The notes beneath the pieces were generated by a model, which made no database searches, was not told the origin of the DNA, and saw only the letters and a program-made list of their open reading frames with translations. Position numbers and translations under genes: made by a program. Of a stretch of 64,000 nt of DNA, positions 4,771-59,130 are shown in pieces. Positions within the stretch are counted from its first letter, which is position 1; each line of letters begins with the position of its first letter. The stretch lies in contig CAZSTC010000001.1 of NCBI GenBank assembly GCA_964609795.1, positions 17,518-81,517 on the forward strand, in the 5' to 3' direction. Source of the DNA: an uncultured Verrucomicrobiota bacterium. Its GTDB lineage: Bacteria > Verrucomicrobiota > Verrucomicrobiia > Limisphaerales > UBA1412.

Positions 4771-4803
4771 AAAAAAGATGTGCTACCCCGAAGGGTAGCA
4801 CAT
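4771..4803 (-). terminator. Rho-independent terminator ending the hemE-led gene string
   Basis: On the minus strand the hairpin ATGTGCTACCC/GGGTAGCACAT (11 bp, 4-nt loop) is followed by T6. Confidence 0.7.
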
Positions 4804-4889
4804 TCATAATACACTACTACGCAAACAAATTACTCTTCTCATCTTGCCACCTCCCTGGGAGCATCTTACCTAAAAGGCAGAAGGTAAAA

Positions 4890-5156
4890 CTACTCGTTGA
4901 TGAATCCCACAGGGCCGTAAACAGCAGCTCGACCTACCGTTTCCTTTGCTATGGATTCATTGCCTGTTTTTGCAACCAGACGTACATTTTGAGGTTGTAC
5001 AATGGGCGATAAATAGGCCTTCCAAAAGAGGAGAGTAAAAACAACTAAACAGGTGAAAGCGAGTCCGGGCAAAAATTCGCGACGGAACAAGTACCAACGC
5101 CGACGCATCGGCATGGGCACTCTCCCGCAGCAGCTCTGTTGCACTTTCGCGCTCAT
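4890..5156 (-). CDS. Small single-pass membrane protein, unknown function
   Basis: It follows the U32 gene. RRRWYLFRREF is followed by the hydrophobic helix LPGLAFTCLVVFTLLFW. The start is ambiguous (TTG 5225, ATG 5156 or ATG 5114) and no family is recognised. Confidence 0.3.
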   Translation of the reverse strand: MSAKVQQSCCGRVPMPMRRRWYLFRREFLPGLAFTCLVVFTLLFWKAYLSPIVQPQNVRLVAKTGNESIAKETVGRAAVYGPVGFINE

Positions 5157-5256
5157 CACGCTGGGGGTATAGCAGTCTTCATGCCAACCATGGAGGAGCC
5201 TGCTTTTGTTTTTTTGAACCGCCAAGGCAGCAGGGTAGGGAAAGGAAACTTTGGTG

Positions 5257-7869
5257 CTAACTTTCGTTTTCTTTTAAACTTCCTCGAGTCAGCGAAAACC
5301 CCAGAGTTTTGAGATTGCTCCAAATTTCTTCAGACGGAAGTTCTTCATTGAGAAGGTGTTGATAAAGATGAATGACCTGAAGTGTTTCCTGTCGGGTTTC
5401 GTCTAGAAACTCAATGCGGAACCTGTTGAGTCCAAGTTGCCTGAGGGTTGTAAAAGATTCGCAAGCGCTTTGAATGCGCCCGTTAAAGACGGTGTTCCGA
5501 CAGCATGCATCTGCCAGAATAGGGAGGGTCACCCCGGTCCGATCTTTTAAGGCAAGCGTCCCTTTTTCGCAGATTTTGCCGCATTGGGGATAGCCCGGTT
5601 TATTTGTCAGGTAAGCGCAGAAAAAGCAAAAGGCTGTGTGGAACATCGGCATATGCTGATGCAGAGTAAACTCAAAACGCTCCGGAGTGCTTTGAAGTAG
5701 CATAGAAGCGATTTGTATTAAATTGAGATCATAGGATAGTGTGAGCGATTGGAGCCCTTTTTGCCGTAAAAAGTAGTCGGCACTCAGATGATTGGTGATG
5801 TTGAGTGTGTAATCCCCTCTGCATGGGTATTTTTTGAAGTAGTCTAGATGGTCATAGTTGCGGACCAGATATCCATCGGCTCCCGAATTCAGGGTAAGTT
5901 TGAGAAATTCTTCTTCTTCAGGTTTGAATATTCTGGGTGGTGCGACATAGATGGAAGGGTGTTTCCCCTGAGAAAGAGGGTGAGCGGATTTGATCCTGGA
6001 AACAGCCTTCGGATGGAGCTCTAAATCCTCAAAATCACAATATAAAGTTTGGACTCCTGCTTCCAGAGCCGCTTCGAGTTGTTCCCAACTGCGTACCAAT
6101 ACGATCAACTCCGGTTGCGTATTCGGGCGGGCTGCTGTGTTATTCGTGCAGGCAATCGCGGCTGGCTCTTTTTCAATCGTCCAGTTGGGGCGCTTTCTCC
6201 TCAACTCAAGGAGCTGGACAGAAAGGTCACGCCGCATCCTGTTGAGTTCGCTCACCGGAATCATACACGAAGAAGAGAGCATGAAGTGGAGCTTTTTCAG
6301 GCAGAAAGGGGTGTCGCCCAGCCGTTCCAATTGTTTGGTCAGTTTTTCCTCTGATAAAGGCTGAGAGTGAGCCTGTTGCAACGGCATTGAGGAAAGAGTC
6401 TGCACGGTTCTCCCCAGCTCGTCGGTCATTGTCAGCTTCAGGGGCAGGCCAACGGAGCCTTCAGCCGAAATTTCAACAGGGCGTCGATAGAAAATTTTAT
6501 CCAGGGTATAGCTCTGGGCCAGTTCCCGCTCAAGCTCCGGGTCGCTTGTCTTATAAACCAGATCGCCGGGGCGAACCTGACGCGGGTCAAAGGTCTCGTT
6601 GCTGAACTCCAACCCCAGAAGTTGGTTATTGCCTGAGAATGAATGATATACTCTGCCGGCCTGGGCGGTTTGGAAAGAGGCCGGGTTGATAAAAGCGACT
6701 CCATCGCCGGGCTTGACGTGAGTATGGGTTTTAATCCAAAGGGTCTGGTTGTTATCGATATGAGAGACTTCCCCGAGTTGGAAGCCCTGATTGCCGGAAA
6801 AGCGCGCATGACAAAGCTTCTGGTTGTCCGTGCCCTGGAGCCAGCCGCTGCTCAGACCGCGGGAGAAGATAATCTCCATTTCGTAACGCTTGCGGCGTGA
6901 AAATTCATTCAGCTCGCTTTGGCAGGAGCTCAGGTCAAATCGATTTGCAGAGAGTGTCTCCCAGACTTTGTCGATCGCCTGTCGATAGATGCGGCAGATA
7001 CTGGCGACATAGGCAGGGCTTTTTAACCTTCCTTCGATCTTGAGGCAGGTGACCCCGGATTGGATGAGTTCCGGAATATGTTCCAGCCCAATCCTGTCTT
7101 TGGGGCTGGCAAGAAAGCGTCTGGGGCCCAGCGGATACTCTGCGCCATTGCGAATGAGCTGGTAGGGCAATCGACAGGGCTGGGCACATTCTCCACGGTT
7201 GGCGGATCGACCTCCCAGGGCTTCGCTGGCGAGGCATTGCCCCGAAAAACTGAGGCAGAGTGCACCATGGATAAAAATTTCAAGAGGAAGTTGTTGAGGA
7301 GCTTCTCCGAGCTTACTATTCAGCCTTTGTTGCTGAAGGATGGAGATTTCTTTTGAGGAGCATTCACGTCCCAAAGCGGTCAGGGAAGCACCCAGATGTT
7401 CAGCAAATTCAATTCCCGTGGCTGAGGTGATGCTCATTTGCGTGGAGGCATGTATCGGGAAATCGGGAGAGAGACGGCGTATCAACCGGAGAATGCCGAT
7501 ATCCTGAACGATCACTGCGTCAGCTCCTGCGGATATGATCTGCTCCAGATACTCCTGAACTGCCTCCAGCTCGTTGCTGAATACGAGAGTATTCAACGTG
7601 ATATATCCCTTGAGCCCTCGCTCATGCAGATACTCCATGAGTGAGGGTAACTGTTCCAGGGTGAAGTTATTGGCCCGAATTCGTGCATTGAAGCGGTCCA
7701 GGCCAAAATAGATTGCATCAGCTCCGTTTTCGACGGCTGCACGGGCGCAATCCCAATCCCCGGCAGGGGAGAGGAGCTCCGGTTTTGACGGACGAAGGGG
7801 CATTGGTAAATTTTCCAATTCCAAAAGTTTGATGTAAGGTGTGTCGGATAAACCTTCCGGGTTATCCAT
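5257..7869 (-). CDS. U32 family protein, long two-module form (peptidase U32 / Fe-S hydroxylase-like)
   Basis: The N-half has ELLSPAGDWDCARAAVENGADAIYFG and the U32 signature EIFIHGALCLSFSGQCLAS plus GECAQPCR. The C-half is a second U32-like barrel with CFFC..CGKIC..CC. The start overlaps the hemY stop by 8 nt, with an alternative ATG at 7803. Confidence 0.8.
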   Translation of the reverse strand: MDNPEGLSDTPYIKLLELENLPMPLRPSKPELLSPAGDWDCARAAVENGADAIYFGLDRFNARIRANNFTLEQLPSLMEYLHERGLKGYITLNTLVFSNELEAVQEYLEQIISAGADAVIVQDIGILRLIRRLSPDFPIHASTQMSITSATGIEFAEHLGASLTALGRECSSKEISILQQQRLNSKLGEAPQQLPLEIFIHGALCLSFSGQCLASEALGGRSANRGECAQPCRLPYQLIRNGAEYPLGPRRFLASPKDRIGLEHIPELIQSGVTCLKIEGRLKSPAYVASICRIYRQAIDKVWETLSANRFDLSSCQSELNEFSRRKRYEMEIIFSRGLSSGWLQGTDNQKLCHARFSGNQGFQLGEVSHIDNNQTLWIKTHTHVKPGDGVAFINPASFQTAQAGRVYHSFSGNNQLLGLEFSNETFDPRQVRPGDLVYKTSDPELERELAQSYTLDKIFYRRPVEISAEGSVGLPLKLTMTDELGRTVQTLSSMPLQQAHSQPLSEEKLTKQLERLGDTPFCLKKLHFMLSSSCMIPVSELNRMRRDLSVQLLELRRKRPNWTIEKEPAAIACTNNTAARPNTQPELIVLVRSWEQLEAALEAGVQTLYCDFEDLELHPKAVSRIKSAHPLSQGKHPSIYVAPPRIFKPEEEEFLKLTLNSGADGYLVRNYDHLDYFKKYPCRGDYTLNITNHLSADYFLRQKGLQSLTLSYDLNLIQIASMLLQSTPERFEFTLHQHMPMFHTAFCFFCAYLTNKPGYPQCGKICEKGTLALKDRTGVTLPILADACCRNTVFNGRIQSACESFTTLRQLGLNRFRIEFLDETRQETLQVIHLYQHLLNEELPSEEIWSNLKTLGFSLTRGSLKENES

Positions 7870-9256
7870 CTATAAGTCCGGCTTCTTTAACGTGCTTCTC
7901 GATTCTATCGGCAAAATCGAAACCTGAGAGGAGGTTATCGCTCAGAGCCGGACCGCGGGTGTAGTTACCTCCGATAAAGAGCCCCGGGCAGCGCTCCTGG
8001 ATTTTGGCAATGTGATCTTTGTAGAAGCCGTAGCCGACATCATATTGGGGGATAGCCCTGGGAAAGTAGTGAGCGATTTTAAAAGTCGGTTGCTCTTTAA
8101 TGTTGAGGAGGTTAGAGAGGTCGTTATGGACGAGCTCAAAGAGCTTATCCTCAGGCAATCCAGCTAGTTCCGGCTGGCGCATTCCCCCTACATAGGAAGA
8201 CAAAATGACGTGACCTTCCGGGGCGCGGTTCTTGAAAAGACTGGAGCTGAAGAGGGTTCCCAGAATGTTCAGGCGTTCGACGCCGGGGACGAGCATTCCG
8301 AAACCATTGAGTGGGTGCCCGACGGCAGAGCGTCTATAGCCCAGAGCGACAGAGGTGACCGGGGCGTAGGAGATTTGTCCCAGGGGCGCCAGAGAGAGCT
8401 TCTCGGGTGTATCCAGAGTGATGTATTGGGCCGCGTAGGCAGAACTGCAGAGGAGCACGGCCGAATGCTCTCGCTCCATCATGATGTTGCCATCCAGATA
8501 TCCGACTTTCCACCCGGTGGGAGTACGGGTGATTTTTTGAACCGGATTATTGAGATGGAGCATGTTATCCAGACTGGCCGCCATGGCGTCGGTGAGCACT
8601 TGAAGTCCCTCATCAAAGGAGAAGACTTTAGCCTCCTGTTTGGAGGTTTCACCCCGTTTTTTGCGGTCACGCGCACCGAAGAATTGGGCCCGGATCATTG
8701 AGCCATACTTCTGCTCGCCCATGTAGAGCTTGGGGAAACCGTGCATCACTGATAGCCTTTCGGGGTTACCTGCAAAAATACCTGCGACCAGCGCATCAAT
8801 GGCATAGGTGAGGAACTCCTGACCAAAACGCCTGCGCACAAAGTGTGCGACGGTTTCTTCGTATTTGTTTTTCCAGCGCGGCCGGAAAGGCTCCATGAAC
8901 AGGTTGAACTTGGCAAACCAACTGAAGAGAGGCGATGAGAGAAAACCAAATGCGGTTGAAGGCATGGGTATGACTCTTCCTCCGCGTACCAAATAGCGGG
9001 TTTGGCCGACATCCTCGGCAAAGGTGACGTGCCCAGCCAGATTCGCCATCTGGATCAGATGCTCAATTTTCTTGGAAGTATTTAAAAGAGTGTTGGGGCC
9101 AAACTCCGCCAGGTAGCCCTCCTTACGGACGCTTCGAATGACTCCACCAACACGACCGGTCGCCTCATAAATTTCAACAGGACACTTTTTCTGTTTCAGC
9201 AGGAAAGCGCTTGCCAGCCCTGTAATTCCTGAACCTATAACTGCAATGGATTTCAT
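7862..9256 (-). CDS. hemY: Protoporphyrinogen oxidase (HemY/PPOX family; CgoX-type coproporphyrinogen oxidase not excluded)
   Basis: The FAD fold is marked by IAVIGSGITGLASAFLL...RVGG. The 464-aa length and the C-terminal GGNYTRGPALSD fit the family. The ATG overlaps the hemN stop (ATGA). Confidence 0.8.
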   Translation of the reverse strand: MKSIAVIGSGITGLASAFLLKQKKCPVEIYEATGRVGGVIRSVRKEGYLAEFGPNTLLNTSKKIEHLIQMANLAGHVTFAEDVGQTRYLVRGGRVIPMPSTAFGFLSSPLFSWFAKFNLFMEPFRPRWKNKYEETVAHFVRRRFGQEFLTYAIDALVAGIFAGNPERLSVMHGFPKLYMGEQKYGSMIRAQFFGARDRKKRGETSKQEAKVFSFDEGLQVLTDAMAASLDNMLHLNNPVQKITRTPTGWKVGYLDGNIMMEREHSAVLLCSSAYAAQYITLDTPEKLSLAPLGQISYAPVTSVALGYRRSAVGHPLNGFGMLVPGVERLNILGTLFSSSLFKNRAPEGHVILSSYVGGMRQPELAGLPEDKLFELVHNDLSNLLNIKEQPTFKIAHYFPRAIPQYDVGYGFYKDHIAKIQERCPGLFIGGNYTRGPALSDNLLSGFDFADRIEKHVKEAGLIDG

Positions 9257-10626
9257 ACTGTCTGGGAAAAACGCCTTTGTGAGTCTTTCTTGAGATACAC
9301 GTCAAAGTGCATAACGATATTGCGGATGAAGAGTCGACCTGAGTCGGTTACTTTTACCCCCTCTTCATTGCAAACGAGCAAGCCATCGGATTGCATATTT
9401 TTCAAGGAATCGAGTTCCTCCGAAAAATAGCGGATAAAGTCGATAGCCAGCAGATTACTCATGGCCTTATAGTTCAACTCCAAATCACACATGAGCTTCA
9501 TGATGGTTTTCTGCCGGATTTTATCATCCTCAGAAAGGAGGTATCCCTTCCGCTGGGCAGGTTTTTTCTCATCAAGAAGCGCATAGTATTCTTTTAAATC
9601 TTTCTCATTTTGCCAGTAGACGGAATCGGTCTGGGAAATGGAAGACATACCAAAAGCATAGAGATCGCTTCCCGAATGGGTGCTGTAACCCTGGAAATTT
9701 CGACGGAGAGTTTTATTGCGTTGGGCCAGGGAAAGCTCATCGGTTTCCAGGGCGAAGTGGTCCATTCCTATGTAGGTGTAGCCGCTGTCGGTTAACTTCT
9801 CCACTGTCATCTTGAGGATATCCATTTTGACTTCCGGGGGGAGAGGCGTGAGCGCATTCTGGGCCTTTTTCAACCACGGCACGTGGGCATAATTGAAGAC
9901 GGCAAAACGATTGGGCTTCATCCTCAATATTTCGTCCAATGTTTTCTCAAAACTGGAGGCTGTTTGCAGCGGTAACCCATAGATGAGGTCTACATTGACG
10001 GATTCTATACCGGCAGAATGAACCCACTCCCACGTGCGGAGGTTGAGCTCATGGGGTTGATAGCGGTGGACTGTCTTTTGCACTTCCGGGTTTAAATCCT
10101 GGATACCGATGCTGACACGGTTGACTCCAATTTCCGCAAAAGCCTTGATCTTCGCCTCTGTCGCCGTGCGTGGGTCTACTTCTACGCTGGCTTCATAAGA
10201 TTTTTCAAAGGAGAAAAGTTTATGAATCCAACTGCCGAGCTGGAGAATTTCCGCCGGTTCCGAATATGTTGGAGAGCCTCCTCCAAAATGAAGTTGAACT
10301 ATCTTGCGCTTGGGATTGAGCAAGGGGGTAATCATATCCAGCTCTTTTCGCAGGTACTGGAAGTAGCGGGCACTGCAGGAGCTATTCAACGAAATAACGT
10401 TCGTGCATCCGCAGAACCAGCAAAGGCTTTTGCAAAAGGGTAAATGAAAATAGAGCGATACGGGTACATCGCTTTGAGATGGGGCATTGTTGGCTTCGAT
10501 ATAGGGAACCAACATATCCCACGTGACCTTCTCATCAAAATTCGGTGCTGTCGGATATGAGGTATAGCGCGGTCCCGGGACGTTGTACTTGCGAATTAAA
10601 TCCAGTTGAACTTCTATTTTTGCCAT
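9253..10626 (-). CDS. hemN: Oxygen-independent coproporphyrinogen III oxidase (radical SAM)
   Basis: It has PRYTSYPT, the radical-SAM cluster motif FCKSLCWFCGC and GGGSPT, at 457 aa. Confidence 0.9.
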   Translation of the reverse strand: MAKIEVQLDLIRKYNVPGPRYTSYPTAPNFDEKVTWDMLVPYIEANNAPSQSDVPVSLYFHLPFCKSLCWFCGCTNVISLNSSCSARYFQYLRKELDMITPLLNPKRKIVQLHFGGGSPTYSEPAEILQLGSWIHKLFSFEKSYEASVEVDPRTATEAKIKAFAEIGVNRVSIGIQDLNPEVQKTVHRYQPHELNLRTWEWVHSAGIESVNVDLIYGLPLQTASSFEKTLDEILRMKPNRFAVFNYAHVPWLKKAQNALTPLPPEVKMDILKMTVEKLTDSGYTYIGMDHFALETDELSLAQRNKTLRRNFQGYSTHSGSDLYAFGMSSISQTDSVYWQNEKDLKEYYALLDEKKPAQRKGYLLSEDDKIRQKTIMKLMCDLELNYKAMSNLLAIDFIRYFSEELDSLKNMQSDGLLVCNEEGVKVTDSGRLFIRNIVMHFDVYLKKDSQRRFSQTV

Positions 10627-10632
10627 TCTATT

Positions 10633-11679
10633 TTATAAATATTCCGGTCTTGCGGCGCTGTTATTGAGCTCACTCATTAGCGCTTCAATACATTCCACTT
10701 TGCCGCTGGGGAGCACTCCGTGGCCCAGGTTGAGGATGAAACCATCCATACCGCGCATCTCTTCTAAAAGAGATTTTGTGGCCTGACGAACCTCTTCAGG
10801 ATATTGAGTCAGCAAAACGGGGTCCAGATTTCCCTGAACACAGCGTTGGGGACCGACAGATTTTTTGACCGCTGACAAGGACTGCGTCCAATCTACAGAA
10901 AGAACATGTGCCGGAGTTTGAATGTAGGATTTCCAAGCCTCCCCTTTGGAGTAGACGATCATGGGGCGGTCTTTGCCCAGATTCTCTAAAATCCGCTTGA
11001 TATATTTGCCCGAAAGCTCCCAATAGAGGTCCTGCGGAGCAAGAGCGGAGAGACTGTCAAAAATTTGTGCCGAATCTATTCCTTCAGACCATTGCATGAG
11101 AAGATATTCTGTAACTGAATCTGCCAGAAGGTTCATGAAGGCCTCAAACTCTGCCGGTTTTTCCTGATACCATTGGATAGTCCGCAGCTCTTTGCTTGCA
11201 TCGACATGGCCGCCTTCGGTCATAAAGCAGGCCAAGGTCCAGGGAGACCCACTGAAGCCAATAAGGGCATTCTTGTCGTCAAGCTTATTCCGGACCAGGC
11301 TGAGAGCCTGACGGACATAGCTAAGGCGATCGGTAATATTTTTCCAGTTTAGTCGGGTCCGGAAATCTTCAGGATTCAGTGCAAAATCCATTTCTATTCC
11401 CCCTTGGGAACGGAAGCTGTATCCCTGGCCCAGCGCTTCAGGGATCACCAGAATATCGCTGAAGATAATGGCTACATCAAAATTGAATCGTTGCAGAGGT
11501 TGCAGAGTGACTTCTGCACAAAGCTCAGGCGTACGAACTAAATCCAGGAAGGAGTATTTTTCACGCAAAGCGCGATACTCCGGCAGAACTCTGCCGGCCT
11601 GCCTCATCAGCCATACGGGTGGGCGGTCAACCTTTTCACATCGTAAGGCAGAGAGAAAACGTCTCTTGCCGTTTAGCAT
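10633..11679 (-). CDS. hemE: Uroporphyrinogen decarboxylase
   Basis: It carries the signature PPVWLMRQAGRVLPEYR, at 348 aa. Confidence 0.9.
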   Translation of the reverse strand: MLNGKRRFLSALRCEKVDRPPVWLMRQAGRVLPEYRALREKYSFLDLVRTPELCAEVTLQPLQRFNFDVAIIFSDILVIPEALGQGYSFRSQGGIEMDFALNPEDFRTRLNWKNITDRLSYVRQALSLVRNKLDDKNALIGFSGSPWTLACFMTEGGHVDASKELRTIQWYQEKPAEFEAFMNLLADSVTEYLLMQWSEGIDSAQIFDSLSALAPQDLYWELSGKYIKRILENLGKDRPMIVYSKGEAWKSYIQTPAHVLSVDWTQSLSAVKKSVGPQRCVQGNLDPVLLTQYPEEVRQATKSLLEEMRGMDGFILNLGHGVLPSGKVECIEALMSELNNSAARPEYL

Positions 11680-11835: not shown

Positions 11836-12423
11836 TTACTTGGCGGCCTTCCACCTGGCAGGGCAAACCTGGTCCGGGTGCGCTCCCACATAGGCATTGG
11901 CTTCGACTTTGCGAACCAATTCTTTCGCACTGCGGGCCACATTGTAGTAGGAAACCTCACTGGAAACCAATTTGCCGGCCGGGCTGATGATGAAAGTACC
12001 TCTCAAAGCCAAGCCGGTTTCTTCGTCATAAACGCCAAAGATCCTCGACACTTTGCCAGTGGGGTCAGCAGCCATGGTGAACTTGACACCTTCCAGGAGT
12101 TTTTCGGATTGCTGCCAGGAAGACTGTACAAATTTGGTGTCGGTGGAAACAGAGATCACTTCGGCTCCGAGTTTCTGCAAAGCTGCATGATTCTCAGCAA
12201 GTTCTTCAAGCTCCGTGGGGCAGACAGGAGTGTATGCCGCGGGATAGAAGAACAGAACAGTCCATTTACCGGTTTCTTTGAGTTTGCAGGAGGAAACTTT
12301 AGTAAAAGCCACCTCAGCAGGAGACCATGCATCCATCTCAAAACAGGGAACGCTATCACCCACAGTTACCGGGCCGCAGCAACAGCAGCACACTTCTTCA
12401 TCTACATTGTTATTTTTGCTCAT
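11836..12423 (-). CDS. ahpC: Typical 2-Cys peroxiredoxin (AhpC/Prx1 type) with a poly-Cys N-terminus
   Basis: The peroxidatic motif FFYPAAYTPVCPTE and the resolving-Cys motif VCPARW are present. The N-terminus reads MSKNNNVDEEVCCCCCGP. Confidence 0.85.
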   Translation of the reverse strand: MSKNNNVDEEVCCCCCGPVTVGDSVPCFEMDAWSPAEVAFTKVSSCKLKETGKWTVLFFYPAAYTPVCPTELEELAENHAALQKLGAEVISVSTDTKFVQSSWQQSEKLLEGVKFTMAADPTGKVSRIFGVYDEETGLALRGTFIISPAGKLVSSEVSYYNVARSAKELVRKVEANAYVGAHPDQVCPARWKAAK

Positions 12424-56713: not shown

Positions 56714-57649
56714 ATGGACAGAAGAGGTTTTCTGAAAAACCTGAGTTTCGGTGCTGCGGGGCTGCTCCTGCCGGGCTGCATCAGCACTCTGCCTGATAAG
56801 GGAAGGCTAGTGGGTGAAGAGCTCATTAGAGACTCACGTTTTAAAAAAGGTTTTCGCCTAGTAGACCCTGAGTTGAGGGTTCAGGATTATGGGCTCTGGC
56901 AGCCTTTTTCGGAAGAGAAGCCGGTTTGGGCAATCGCGCAATGGGGGACCCGCGAAAAAGTAATTCCTCTCAATCAGAGCTCAACTCTTTCTAATTCCTG
57001 CAAGTCGATTTCGGTAGTCCGCACTGGATCAAAGGCCGATTTAATTCTGGCAGTGAACGGCAACCAGGAATATAAAGGAGTACCAAGAAACGGTGATGAA
57101 ATGTGGGCTCATCTGCTCGTAGAGCAGGAAATAGAGTCCTTGCCGCGCCTGGTGGATTTGAAGTCTTTAAAATTCCATCTGGAAGCCAAACTCCTTCATT
57201 CTATCCTTCACAAGCCGGAACTTTTTGACGATGGAAAACATGCCGCTCAGTATCAAGTTTTCTTTTATCTTCAGGATCGGAATAAACAATCTGAAGGTTA
57301 TGGAGAGATGATCTGGTTTGGAATTCCGGTTTATGACAATCGGAAGCCTAAGACTGAGCGCTATGAGGCTCTGGATTTTGCCGGTTCAGGCATGTTTATT
57401 TGTACTTTAGCGCATGAGGACCTCTGTGCAGATTCTGCGCATGAGGGCAAATGGATTAGGCTGGAAGCGGATTTGCTCCCGGAAATGGTCAAGGCTTACT
57501 CCATTGCCCGGAAAAAAGGGTTTATGAAGAAGACCAAAAGCCTGGAAGACATGCATCTCACGGGGATGAACATGGGGTGGGAGGTACCCGGGCTTCTGGA
57601 TGTCAGTTTACAGGTTCGGCACCTGAGCCTTATTGCGGAGAGAATCTAA
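56714..57649 (+). CDS. Hypothetical Tat-signal lipoprotein
   Basis: MDRRGFLKNLSFGAAGLLLPGCIS combines an RR motif with a lipobox Cys. The mature ~285 aa have no motif I recognise. Confidence 0.6.
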   Translation: MDRRGFLKNLSFGAAGLLLPGCISTLPDKGRLVGEELIRDSRFKKGFRLVDPELRVQDYGLWQPFSEEKPVWAIAQWGTREKVIPLNQSSTLSNSCKSISVVRTGSKADLILAVNGNQEYKGVPRNGDEMWAHLLVEQEIESLPRLVDLKSLKFHLEAKLLHSILHKPELFDDGKHAAQYQVFFYLQDRNKQSEGYGEMIWFGIPVYDNRKPKTERYEALDFAGSGMFICTLAHEDLCADSAHEGKWIRLEADLLPEMVKAYSIARKKGFMKKTKSLEDMHLTGMNMGWEVPGLLDVSLQVRHLSLIAERI

Positions 57650-57739: not shown

Positions 57740-59017
57740 CTATCTCCTCATGCCTCCCATAAAGCTACTGAGTCCACCCATTCCGTCTCTGCCTCCTCCG
57801 TTCCCCGTAAAAAGACTGATCATGATATCCTGAGCTATCTTGGTTTGGTCCACACTAGGACGTTCCGCATAGGCACCGGGATTCAAGGAGTATTCCAATT
57901 GTTCCCGCGTTGTGCTGAATGCACTGCCCATGCCTCGTGTTTGCCCATATTCCTGTTCCAGGGAATTGAGGAGAGTGAGTCTGCTCTGAGCTACGTCCGG
58001 GGGAAGATCAGGAGGAGGACCGCCTCTCTCGTTCATTCCCGTAAGACCCAGGACCAATATCGCGCGGATAGGGGTGCCTACCTCTTCTGAATGAATGGAC
58101 CTGGAAAAAAGATCCGTTGCCTGTTCATTGGAGCCGACATAGTTCATGGCTACCCGGATGAGGTCCGCCCGGTCGGCCATCGTCAGTTCAGGATTCCCAA
58201 AAATACTGTGGATTAGCGGCATGGCATCTTCACCCATTGTTTTGTGGAGGAAATCCAGGATATCGCGATCCAGCTTGCCATCTGCCATCAGCTGACCAGC
58301 CAGAACCTGTGCCATTTCAGTATCGTGCAATTCAATGAGGAGGCTCAAGAGTTCCCGCTTGTCATCCCGTGCCAGGGAAGTATCGTTCAACATGTTCCGA
58401 GCCGTGGTGATTGAGATATTTCGAAAAAGCTCCGGATCCAGACTCAAAAGTATTCTTGCAATATAGGTGGCTTCTGAAGCACTGAGGGCAGTCGGGAGTA
58501 TCTGGCTCAAAAGACCTATTGACTCTGAAGTGCCGATATCGCGCAGGACATCAGCCAGCCCCAATCGCGTTGAAGGCGGTACGGGAACCCCTTCACTGAT
58601 GTTAATGGAGGCAGAGCGGATTTTGCCGGATGCGGACAGAATTACATTATGCCCGCTGGTATAGTAATCGCGAATGCTTGCAATGGGGCTTTTCTTTGAT
58701 TCTGTCAAAGCCTGGAAGCAAAAAATGGCTCTCCGGAGTTTTTTGCGTTCACTTTCGTTATCCAGTGTGTAAAGCATCTCGATGAGTTCTTCGGGATCAT
58801 CCTGAAGATAACCGGCGGTGGCGGAAGAAGAGCTCAAGGCCAGTTGATCGCGCAATTGAGCCATTTCTGCTTCCCAACGGGCACGTTCTTCACTTAAGAA
58901 TTTTTCTTGAGCCAGAAGTGATGCTTCCGCAGAGTTGCGGGCATAAAAATGCTGTGCCACTGCGACAACCACCAAAAGCGCCAAGGCTGAACAGAGAGCT
59001 ATATTGATTCGATTCAT
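57740..59017 (-). CDS. Hypothetical membrane-anchored alpha-helical repeat protein with a Gly/Met-rich C-terminus
   Basis: ATG 59017 (MNRINIALCSALALLVVVAVA, a TM anchor) is preferred over the track TTG 59032. A coiled-coil segment is followed by HEAT-like helical repeats, and the protein ends GNGGGRDGMGGLSSFMGGMRR. Confidence 0.6.
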   Translation of the reverse strand: MNRINIALCSALALLVVVAVAQHFYARNSAEASLLAQEKFLSEERARWEAEMAQLRDQLALSSSSATAGYLQDDPEELIEMLYTLDNESERKKLRRAIFCFQALTESKKSPIASIRDYYTSGHNVILSASGKIRSASINISEGVPVPPSTRLGLADVLRDIGTSESIGLLSQILPTALSASEATYIARILLSLDPELFRNISITTARNMLNDTSLARDDKRELLSLLIELHDTEMAQVLAGQLMADGKLDRDILDFLHKTMGEDAMPLIHSIFGNPELTMADRADLIRVAMNYVGSNEQATDLFSRSIHSEEVGTPIRAILVLGLTGMNERGGPPPDLPPDVAQSRLTLLNSLEQEYGQTRGMGSAFSTTREQLEYSLNPGAYAERPSVDQTKIAQDIMISLFTGNGGGRDGMGGLSSFMGGMRR

Positions 59018-59130
59018 CTTCGTTCCTTCCAAAACATCTCAGATGTTTATCATATCCATAAGATACGCCAAAAGCAATTTTTGTGTCTCCAAAAAGTTCT
59101 TCGGGATACAGGGAGCTCACAGCCGAAGAA

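Follow-up and report, generated by a model that had tools for sequence, protein, structure and literature searches.

A putative long-form RlhA-type protein encoded among heme synthesis genes in a small clade of Verrucomicrobia

Introduction

Prephenate is the oxygen donor of the characterized U32-family enzymes, all of which hydroxylate C-H bonds in rings of the pyrimidine or quinone type (PMC10990095). Among them, RlhA (YdcP) is required for 5-hydroxycytidine at C2501 of 23S rRNA (ho5C2501), and the co-occurrence of a U32 domain with DUF3656 is found in the RlhA subfamily only (Kimura 2017, PMC5727448). Here we analyze a U32 protein of 870 amino acids (aa) encoded in a 64,000-nucleotide stretch of DNA from an uncultured Verrucomicrobiota bacterium (GTDB lineage Verrucomicrobiia; Limisphaerales; UBA1412; assembly GCA_964609795.1, contig CAZSTC010000001.1, positions 17,518 to 81,517), hereafter called the window. 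The gene directly follows the heme synthesis genes hemE-hemN-hemY, and a first-pass annotation had proposed that its product may supply an O2-independent step of tetrapyrrole oxidation or hydroxylation. Our analysis instead points to an RlhA-type RNA hydroxylase acting on C2501 of 23S rRNA, a reading to which we assign a probability of roughly 0.6 from sequence comparisons; a role in heme synthesis seems less likely than RNA hydroxylation.

Two further features of the known systems bear on this protein. About half of RlhA1 homologs bear a second, C-terminal U32 motif (RlhA2a/b), and RlhA homologs occur in 17% of cyanobacteria, among other groups (PMC5727448). RlhA1 and RlhA2 have been treated as two domains of one protein, and four-Cys motifs for [4Fe-4S] clusters are general in the U32 family (Pelosi 2019, PMC6747719). 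The ho5C2501 modification is dependent on iron and on iron-sulfur (Fe-S) clusters, is higher under anaerobiosis, and is protective against H2O2 (PMC5727448, PMC8754641, PMC13602947).

Results

Membership in the RlhA subfamily

When the 870-aa protein (gene at 5257-7869, minus strand) was compared by BLASTP with the four E. coli U32 paralogs, the highest score was with RlhA (206 bits), followed by TrhP (154), UbiU (131), and UbiV (26). Identity to E. coli RlhA was 29% over ~600 aa (E 7e-61), and 39% for the N-terminal module alone. There was no RlhA model among the NCBIfam scan matches, and the scores against the models for the other paralogs were below the equivalog cut-offs (TrhP, 203.5 bits vs 534; UbiU, 148.2 vs 440; UbiV, 54.5 vs 275).

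All three parts of a long-form RlhA protein were detected with Pfam models. Peptidase_U32 (PF01136) matched the whole protein with 264.6 bits in two stretches, the N-terminal one covering residues 101-347; this stretch, the family alignment, and the structural model described below place an N-terminal U32 TIM-barrel module at residues 28-350 (6820-7788, minus strand, as are all coordinates within this gene). DUF3656 (PF12392) lies at residues 438-557 (6199-6558), within a basic, mostly β middle region with a median isoelectric point (pI) of 8.8; it scored 93.9 bits (E 1.3e-26), or 98.8 bits when scanned alone. The C-terminal 310 residues by themselves matched Peptidase_U32 at residues 656-844 (5338-5904) with 35.6 bits, which is above the cut-off of 22.4, so that the second barrel can be taken as real; relatives likewise have a U32-DUF3656-U32 architecture in precomputed annotation. 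This C-module also aligned with the N-module of RlhA (E 5e-5).

Residue conservation was read from an alignment of 86 non-redundant full-length family members. The U32 signature that had been noticed in the N-terminal half, EIFIHGALCLSFSGQCLAS..GECAQPCR, is indeed present and spans residues 197-233; its four Cys (205, 212, 228, and 232) constitute a CX6CX15CX3C cluster-type site that is invariant in 86/86 members, and they align with C169/C176/C192/C196 of E. coli RlhA. The RlhA residues that Kimura mutated (E161, H165, C169, Q175, C176, and C611) correspond to E197, H201, C205, Q211, C212, and C763, all of them likewise invariant (86/86); the N-module motif made up of E197, H201, C205, Q211, C212, C228, and C232 occupies 7174-7281. 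The C-module has its own Cys set, as had been claimed, with Cys748, 751, 763, 767, and 790 (5500-5628) invariant in all 86 members. The set had been written as CFFC..CGKIC..CC, however, and the first Cys of the terminal pair is not conserved: C789 is Gly in 79 of the 86, and only C790 is retained. In E. coli RlhA, C169, C176, C580, and C611 are essential, and those that can be aligned are all conserved here. C611/C614 align with C763/C767, whereas C580 is poorly aligned (opposite A643) and can only be presumed to be the counterpart of C748 or C751. Cys41 is a further invariant residue of the alignment.

An AlphaFold2 model (predicted local distance difference test score (pLDDT) 78; predicted template modeling score (pTM) 0.81) consists of two α/β barrel-like halves flanking a β-rich middle. 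Strand and helix elements alternate in the N-module, and both Cys loops are modeled with low confidence, as is to be expected when cofactors are missing. In a Foldseek search against the PDB, the hits were TIM barrels of a generic kind and, at rank 8, the U32 protein Mk0906 (5d88), and a sequence search of solved structures with the U32 protein gave no match at E ≤ 0.001. To our knowledge, no RlhA structure exists for comparison.

Judged from its sequence, the 870-aa protein belongs to the RlhA subfamily of U32 iron-sulfur proteins and has the long form. Because it fits the published description of RlhA1+RlhA2, its two-module, double four-Cys design is the known RlhA long form and not a new fusion. 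The earlier view of a fused pair of U32 modules is thus right in that each module carries its own Cys set, but the architecture was already in the literature; the first-pass annotation had listed RlhA among the characterized U32 proteins but had not recognized that this protein belongs to its subfamily.

Like the window protein, E. coli RlhA has an N-terminal Peptidase_U32 domain followed by DUF3656, and its four-Cys site, E161/H165/Q175, and the C611/C614 pair are all matched; unlike it, the E. coli protein has just 653 aa, with a ~135-aa C-terminal tail and no Pfam-detectable second U32 in place of a full second barrel with five invariant Cys. Long-form RlhA1+RlhA2 proteins, such as the 'peptidase U32' of Pedosphaera parvula Ellin514 (P0019) and those of Nostoc and Calothrix, have the same three-part architecture in ~830-890 aa, show ~50% identity to the window protein over 96% of its length, and have all nine key Cys in common with it; their genes differ in having no heme-gene neighbors and no small membrane open reading frame (ORF) downstream. 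TrhP (YegQ) is also a U32 Fe-S enzyme, a prephenate-dependent tRNA U34 hydroxylase that acts at C5 of an RNA pyrimidine, and its model was the top NCBIfam match on the N-module (the 203.5 bits given above), but it has neither DUF3656 nor a second U32 module. The prephenate-dependent UbiU-UbiV heterodimer likewise has two U32 units acting jointly, with one four-Cys [4Fe-4S] site each (PMC6747719, PMC10990095), but these are separate polypeptides that have no DUF3656 and need UbiT and a lipid substrate.

The Cys motifs also bear on the legacy family name, Peptidase U32 or 'Collagenase', according to which the protein would be a collagenase-type peptidase. Relatives are annotated as 'U32 family peptidase' or 'putative protease', and PrtC and HP0169 are reported to be collagenolytic, but these represent other U32 subfamilies, distinct from RlhA1/2 (PMC5727448). 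With nine invariant Cys in two cluster-type motifs, with all genetically characterized members pointing to Fe-S hydroxylases (PMC5727448, PMC6747719, PMC10990095), and with an N-terminus that, by eye, is a short acidic extension and not secretion-signal-like, we find a peptidase scarcely credible.

Candidate substrate

The protein has thousands of full-length relatives. Its closest named relatives are verrucomicrobial (89% and 73% identity); those that are ~50% identical include Pedosphaera, Opitutae, and many Nostocales. An identity of ~50% that extends over 850 residues between phyla is in keeping with a substrate that is universal, such as rRNA. The small clade to which the window protein belongs, hereafter the heme-linked clade, also retains most of what is conserved in the rest of the long-form group: of 303 alignment columns that are ≥97% conserved in 78 other long-form proteins, 219 are unchanged throughout the heme-linked clade, vs 121 in E. 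coli RlhA. The charge profile of the clade is that of the other long-form proteins, the middle region being basic. An RlhA-like function is favored because the clade keeps DUF3656, both Cys sets, this basic middle region, and these near-invariant positions.

Verrucomicrobial and cyanobacterial long-form proteins have a median identity of 63% (75% for the N-module), near the 66% found among Verrucomicrobia (L002-L081 alignment), which suggests either very strong constraint or an old transfer between the phyla.

An RlhA-like hydroxylase need not act on C2501. Its substrate might be a different rRNA or tRNA position or a small aromatic metabolite, in the whole long form or in the clade only, and its operon position would then be incidental. 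The short E. coli enzyme is the only one characterized (PMC5727448), and most U32 subfamilies are uncharacterized (PMC10990095); moreover, the clade is a divergent branch, and the C-module is far from that of the E. coli enzyme, only 7 of 93 conserved C-region columns being common to long-form proteins and E. coli RlhA. Against this, DUF3656 is specific to the RlhA subfamily (PMC5727448), conservation across phyla is high, and ho5C2501 is present in Deinococcus radiodurans, an organism with an RlhA1-subfamily protein (PMC5727448, PMC8754641). We therefore regard another substrate as unlikely, although the likeliest of the alternatives to C2501.

Gene order and junctions

As had been described, five genes run head to tail on the minus strand, and ORF coordinates and curated cut-offs agree in this. 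They are hemE, encoding uroporphyrinogen decarboxylase (10633-11679; TIGR01464, 323.6 bits, cut-off 303; Pfam URO-D, E 5.6e-100); hemN, encoding an O2-independent radical S-adenosylmethionine coproporphyrinogen III oxidase (9253-10626; TIGR00538, 537.8 bits, cut-off 325); hemY, encoding a flavin adenine dinucleotide-dependent protoporphyrinogen/coproporphyrinogen oxidase (7862-9256; TIGR00562, 286 bits, cut-off 98); the U32 gene; and a small membrane-protein ORF whose longest form is 4890-5225. Read from the sequence, the gap between hemE and hemN is 6 nucleotides (nt), hemN and hemY overlap by 4 nt in the ATGA of ...cagtATGAaa, and hemY and the U32 gene overlap by 8 nt (ATGGATAA), which confirms both overlaps reported earlier. 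Starting the U32 protein at Met23 would abolish the overlap with hemY. The overlapping start is nevertheless taken to be correct because the N-terminal extension is kept in both the 89% and the 73% identical relatives and Met23 is not, being Ile in the former and absent in the latter.

The string ends at an intrinsic terminator-like hairpin and T run (4771-4803, minus strand). Of the terminator-like sites on the minus strand, the hairpin itself, 4803-4778, ranked best, in agreement with the strong terminator proposed there: it has an 11-bp stem with 6 G-C pairs and a TTCG loop, is followed by CTTTTTT, and sits in the intergenic spacer 3' of the small ORF. Terminator-like sites were not enriched overall (12 vs 11.9 expected from shuffles), so that the case for a terminator is made by this single hairpin, through its quality and where it lies. 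A second terminator-like hairpin (11746-11720) lies between hemE and the neighboring upstream gene, which encodes an AhpC-type peroxiredoxin (11836-12423, minus strand; Pfam AhpC-TSA, E 2.4e-33), and a promoter-like site (12494-12467) lies upstream of the latter; the AhpC gene probably forms a transcript apart from the heme genes. No sigma-70-like site was found on the minus strand within hemY or before the U32 gene, in a scan that is weak (4 sites vs 8.2 expected) and for a phylum whose promoters may differ. Rfam returned three tRNAs only, with no leader or riboswitch at the operon. The U32 gene is thus arranged for co-transcription with hemE-hemN-hemY, and it is probably translationally coupled to them.

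The ratio of nonsynonymous to synonymous substitution rates (dN/dS) was 0.09-0.13 for the U32 gene, vs 0.05-0.10 for the heme genes. The U32 gene is under purifying selection comparable to that on its neighbors, and a pseudogene or decaying gene was rejected on these values.

Extent of the heme linkage

The synteny sample comprised 80 loci of other Verrucomicrobia and of Cyanobacteria, with U32 proteins 46-50% identical to that of the window, which were searched with the window's neighbor proteins; upstream sequence extended for ≥1.5 kb in 70 of the 80 loci and for ≥4.5 kb in 57. Within the available flanks, neither hemE nor hemY was found in any of the 80, and hemN was found in one, 3 kb away. 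The gene upstream of the unlinked U32 gene was on the opposite strand in 45 of 76 loci. Because it usually is, these U32 genes mostly stand alone, as does E. coli rlhA and unlike the window gene with its overlap of hemY. The unlinked U32 genes had no universally conserved neighbor in the 80 loci; a gene for a LysR regulator was the commonest, at 15 loci, mostly of Opitutae.

The heme linkage is nonetheless real, but confined to one small, sharply bounded verrucomicrobial clade, and it is one evolutionary event. A search with a profile of the clade recovered only ten clusters at 90% identity, scoring 1590-1707 bits, with the next match at 1130 bits. The clade has three heme-linked sublineages: A (the window, P0002, and P0003), B (P0004-P0009), and C (P0010). 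The association of U32 and hem genes therefore fares differently at two levels, being absent with respect to hemE and hemY from the 80 loci of the wider family but kept as a block in all three sublineages.

The LysR-type gene precedes the unlinked U32 gene on the same strand in L045 (7015-7923), L051 (6840-7781), L054 (5635-6555), L069 (1493-2413), L024 (5703-7975), and others. It was not identifiable as OxyR specifically, since the CynR, GltC, and OxyR models all scored below their cut-offs. In several loci a major facilitator superfamily transporter lies between the LysR and U32 genes; its nearest model is the myxochelin exporter MxcK (296 bits, below the cut-off of 525), and it was not used as evidence.

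Ferrochelatase slot, membrane protein, and divergence of the clade

Several properties of the clade, and one of the literature, count against C2501 as the substrate. The hemE-hemN-hemY-U32 order is kept in all recovered clade members (U32 identity ≥57%) where the contig reaches far enough, even though the three sublineages are only 55-59% identical in U32 and their outer flanks differ; start/stop overlaps of 8 or 11 nt are present in two of the three. At hemY loci outside the clade, it is the ferrochelatase gene hemH (PF00762, E 3.6e-98) that overlaps the hemY end, as in the related hemE-hemN-hemY operons of L098 (hemH at 7407-8465), L100 (7407-8480), L102 (7422-8483), and L099 (4142-5197). 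In the clade, U32 fills this slot, for example at 8001-10523 in L086, and a convergent DUF179 gene follows hemH in L098 and U32 in L086. Directly after the U32 gene comes a clade-specific gene for an 88-aa membrane protein.

The U32 proteins themselves are also set apart. In neighbor-joining trees the heme-linked clade has 100% bootstrap support, and the other Verrucomicrobia are monophyletic without it (97%). The heme-linked proteins share 48-49% identity with the verrucomicrobial group and with the cyanobacterial group, compared with 63% between those two groups, and they do not nest in the main long-form group of Verrucomicrobia and Cyanobacteria as a vertical ortholog would be expected to. 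This position is due to acceleration, to paralogy or transfer, or to long-branch attraction. In both modules, clade-specific substitutions adjoin the Cys ligands. Lastly, we found no biochemical test of a long-form protein in the literature, the direct data coming from the short E. coli enzyme only.

The small ORF is a real gene, and its product is probably 88 aa long, with the start at ATG 5156 (4890-5156, minus strand). Sublineages A and B share its sequence from MSAKVQQ on, with 43-86% identity and a dN/dS of ~0.38. The 88-aa protein is a single-pass membrane protein with an invariant RRW..FRR motif before the transmembrane helix. A database of 5.8 billion proteins contained only six clusters of it, all from the heme-linked clade; it had no Pfam match and no homologs outside the clade in that database, and hence offers no functional lead.

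Taken as signs of a new function, these properties would place the clade's diverged RlhA-like, double-cluster enzyme in late heme synthesis. It might take part in the oxidation of protoporphyrinogen or coproporphyrinogen, as an O2-independent oxidant or as an electron sink, in backup of the O2-dependent HemY or in the service of HemN, or else be a tetrapyrrole hydroxylase, and the 88-aa membrane protein would serve as its anchor. What speaks for such a role is the preservation of the block in three sublineages despite their different outer flanks, with overlaps in two; the position of U32 in the hemH slot, with the same DUF179 neighbor in L098 and L086; and the finding of no hemH in a search that covered the 64-kb window and the clade loci. 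To these can be added the sharp separation of the branch (1590-1707 vs 1130 bits; 48% identity), with its substitutions around both Cys motifs, and the clade-restricted membrane partner. These observations have to be set against a single evolutionary event in a small clade of 10 clusters, a wider family that is unlinked to heme genes, and the retention of DUF3656 and of 72% of the family's near-invariant positions. Moreover, known U32 chemistry is aromatic C-H hydroxylation, not porphyrinogen dehydrogenation or metal insertion (PMC5727448, PMC6747719, PMC10990095). Nor does the protein resemble HemG, HemJ, or HemH: Pfam and NCBIfam, in which it matched U32 and DUF3656 models only, gave no homology to these or to HemQ, AhbD, or other heme enzymes.

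On balance, we consider a function of the clade's enzyme in heme synthesis distinctly improbable. The odds seem a little longer still for the more specific proposal that a diverged RlhA-like enzyme took the ferrochelatase slot and, with the 88-aa membrane protein, gained an O2-independent late heme role. The O2-independent tetrapyrrole step suggested by the first-pass annotation is accordingly contradicted by synteny for the family at large, while the conserved block, the ferrochelatase slot, and the finding of no internal promoter-like site in the weak scan lend it slight support within one clade. The accompanying remark that no U32 protein has been assigned to heme metabolism agrees with our literature search, in which no paper linked U32 proteins to heme synthesis.

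Other genes in the window

The AhpC-type peroxiredoxin encoded upstream of hemE has an N-terminal extension, EEV[S/C]CCCCGPV, in which four consecutive Cys (C13-C16) are invariant and of which the window protein has five; the CCCC tract is kept in the relatives L082, L090, and L094. The protein scores under the equivalog cut-offs for AhpC and PrxU.

The heme/U32 block stands back to back with a large translation gene cluster on the plus strand (12858-44000) that includes tRNAs, tuf, secE, nusG, and rplK, according to Pfam annotation of the syntenic L082 and to Rfam for the tRNAs. By size and position only, three downstream ORFs (1311, 1407, and 730 aa) are candidates for rpoB, rpoC, and fusA, whose expected lengths they match. 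Adjacency to the translation cluster is not retained in sublineages B and C and was given no weight. Two ORFs farther along, 56714-57649 (plus strand, 311 aa) and 57740-59032 (minus strand, 430 aa), had no Pfam match at E ≤ 1e-5.

Discussion

If the 870-aa protein is an RlhA-type hydroxylase, its action can be pictured from that of its characterized relatives. It would carry out an O2-independent, prephenate-dependent hydroxylation, like RlhA, TrhP, and UbiU/V. The Cys site of each module would bind a [4Fe-4S] cluster, and the clusters would carry electrons off the substrate. The two fused modules might then be the intramolecular equivalent of the UbiU-UbiV pair: the N-module, which has the RlhA catalytic motif, would oxidize C5 of the target cytidine and accept the hydroxide released from prephenate, and the C-module would pass electrons on, in the role suggested for UbiV in its pair with UbiU. 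Docking of the enzyme on an early pre-50S particle could fall to DUF3656 together with the basic middle region, and the substrate in that particle would most likely be C2501 of the 23S rRNA.

The position of the gene in a heme operon would, on the RNA hydroxylase reading, be a lineage-specific arrangement that gives co-expression with iron- and oxygen-sensitive functions and implies no shared pathway. Such co-expression with heme and peroxide genes makes sense because ho5C2501 is iron- and Fe-S-dependent and protects against peroxide, HemN is an Fe-S enzyme, and an AhpC gene lies upstream. The hemA-prfA-prmC operon of E. coli, in which a translation-modifying enzyme is co-transcribed with a heme synthesis gene, is a precedent; prmC was once named hemK for following hemA-prfA. 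The enzyme families concerned are unrelated to those discussed here, so that the parallel is one of logic and not of homology.

Were the enzyme to act in heme synthesis after all, it would bring a new O2-independent activity to the late steps of that pathway, extend prephenate/Fe-S U32 chemistry to tetrapyrroles, and give tetrapyrrole metabolism its first U32 protein; it would also bear on how heme is made in the absence of oxygen by organisms with HemY alone. If instead it is an RlhA-type hydroxylase acting on rRNA, as we favor, genes now called 'U32 family peptidase' or 'collagenase' that encode DUF3656 and a second U32 domain should be annotated as RlhA-type Fe-S hydroxylases, and a heme-gene neighborhood would be no proof of membership in the pathway. 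The locus would then also provide a natural fused analog of the UbiU-UbiV pair, with nine invariant Cys mapped, which may be useful for the in vitro reconstitution of a U32 hydroxylase.

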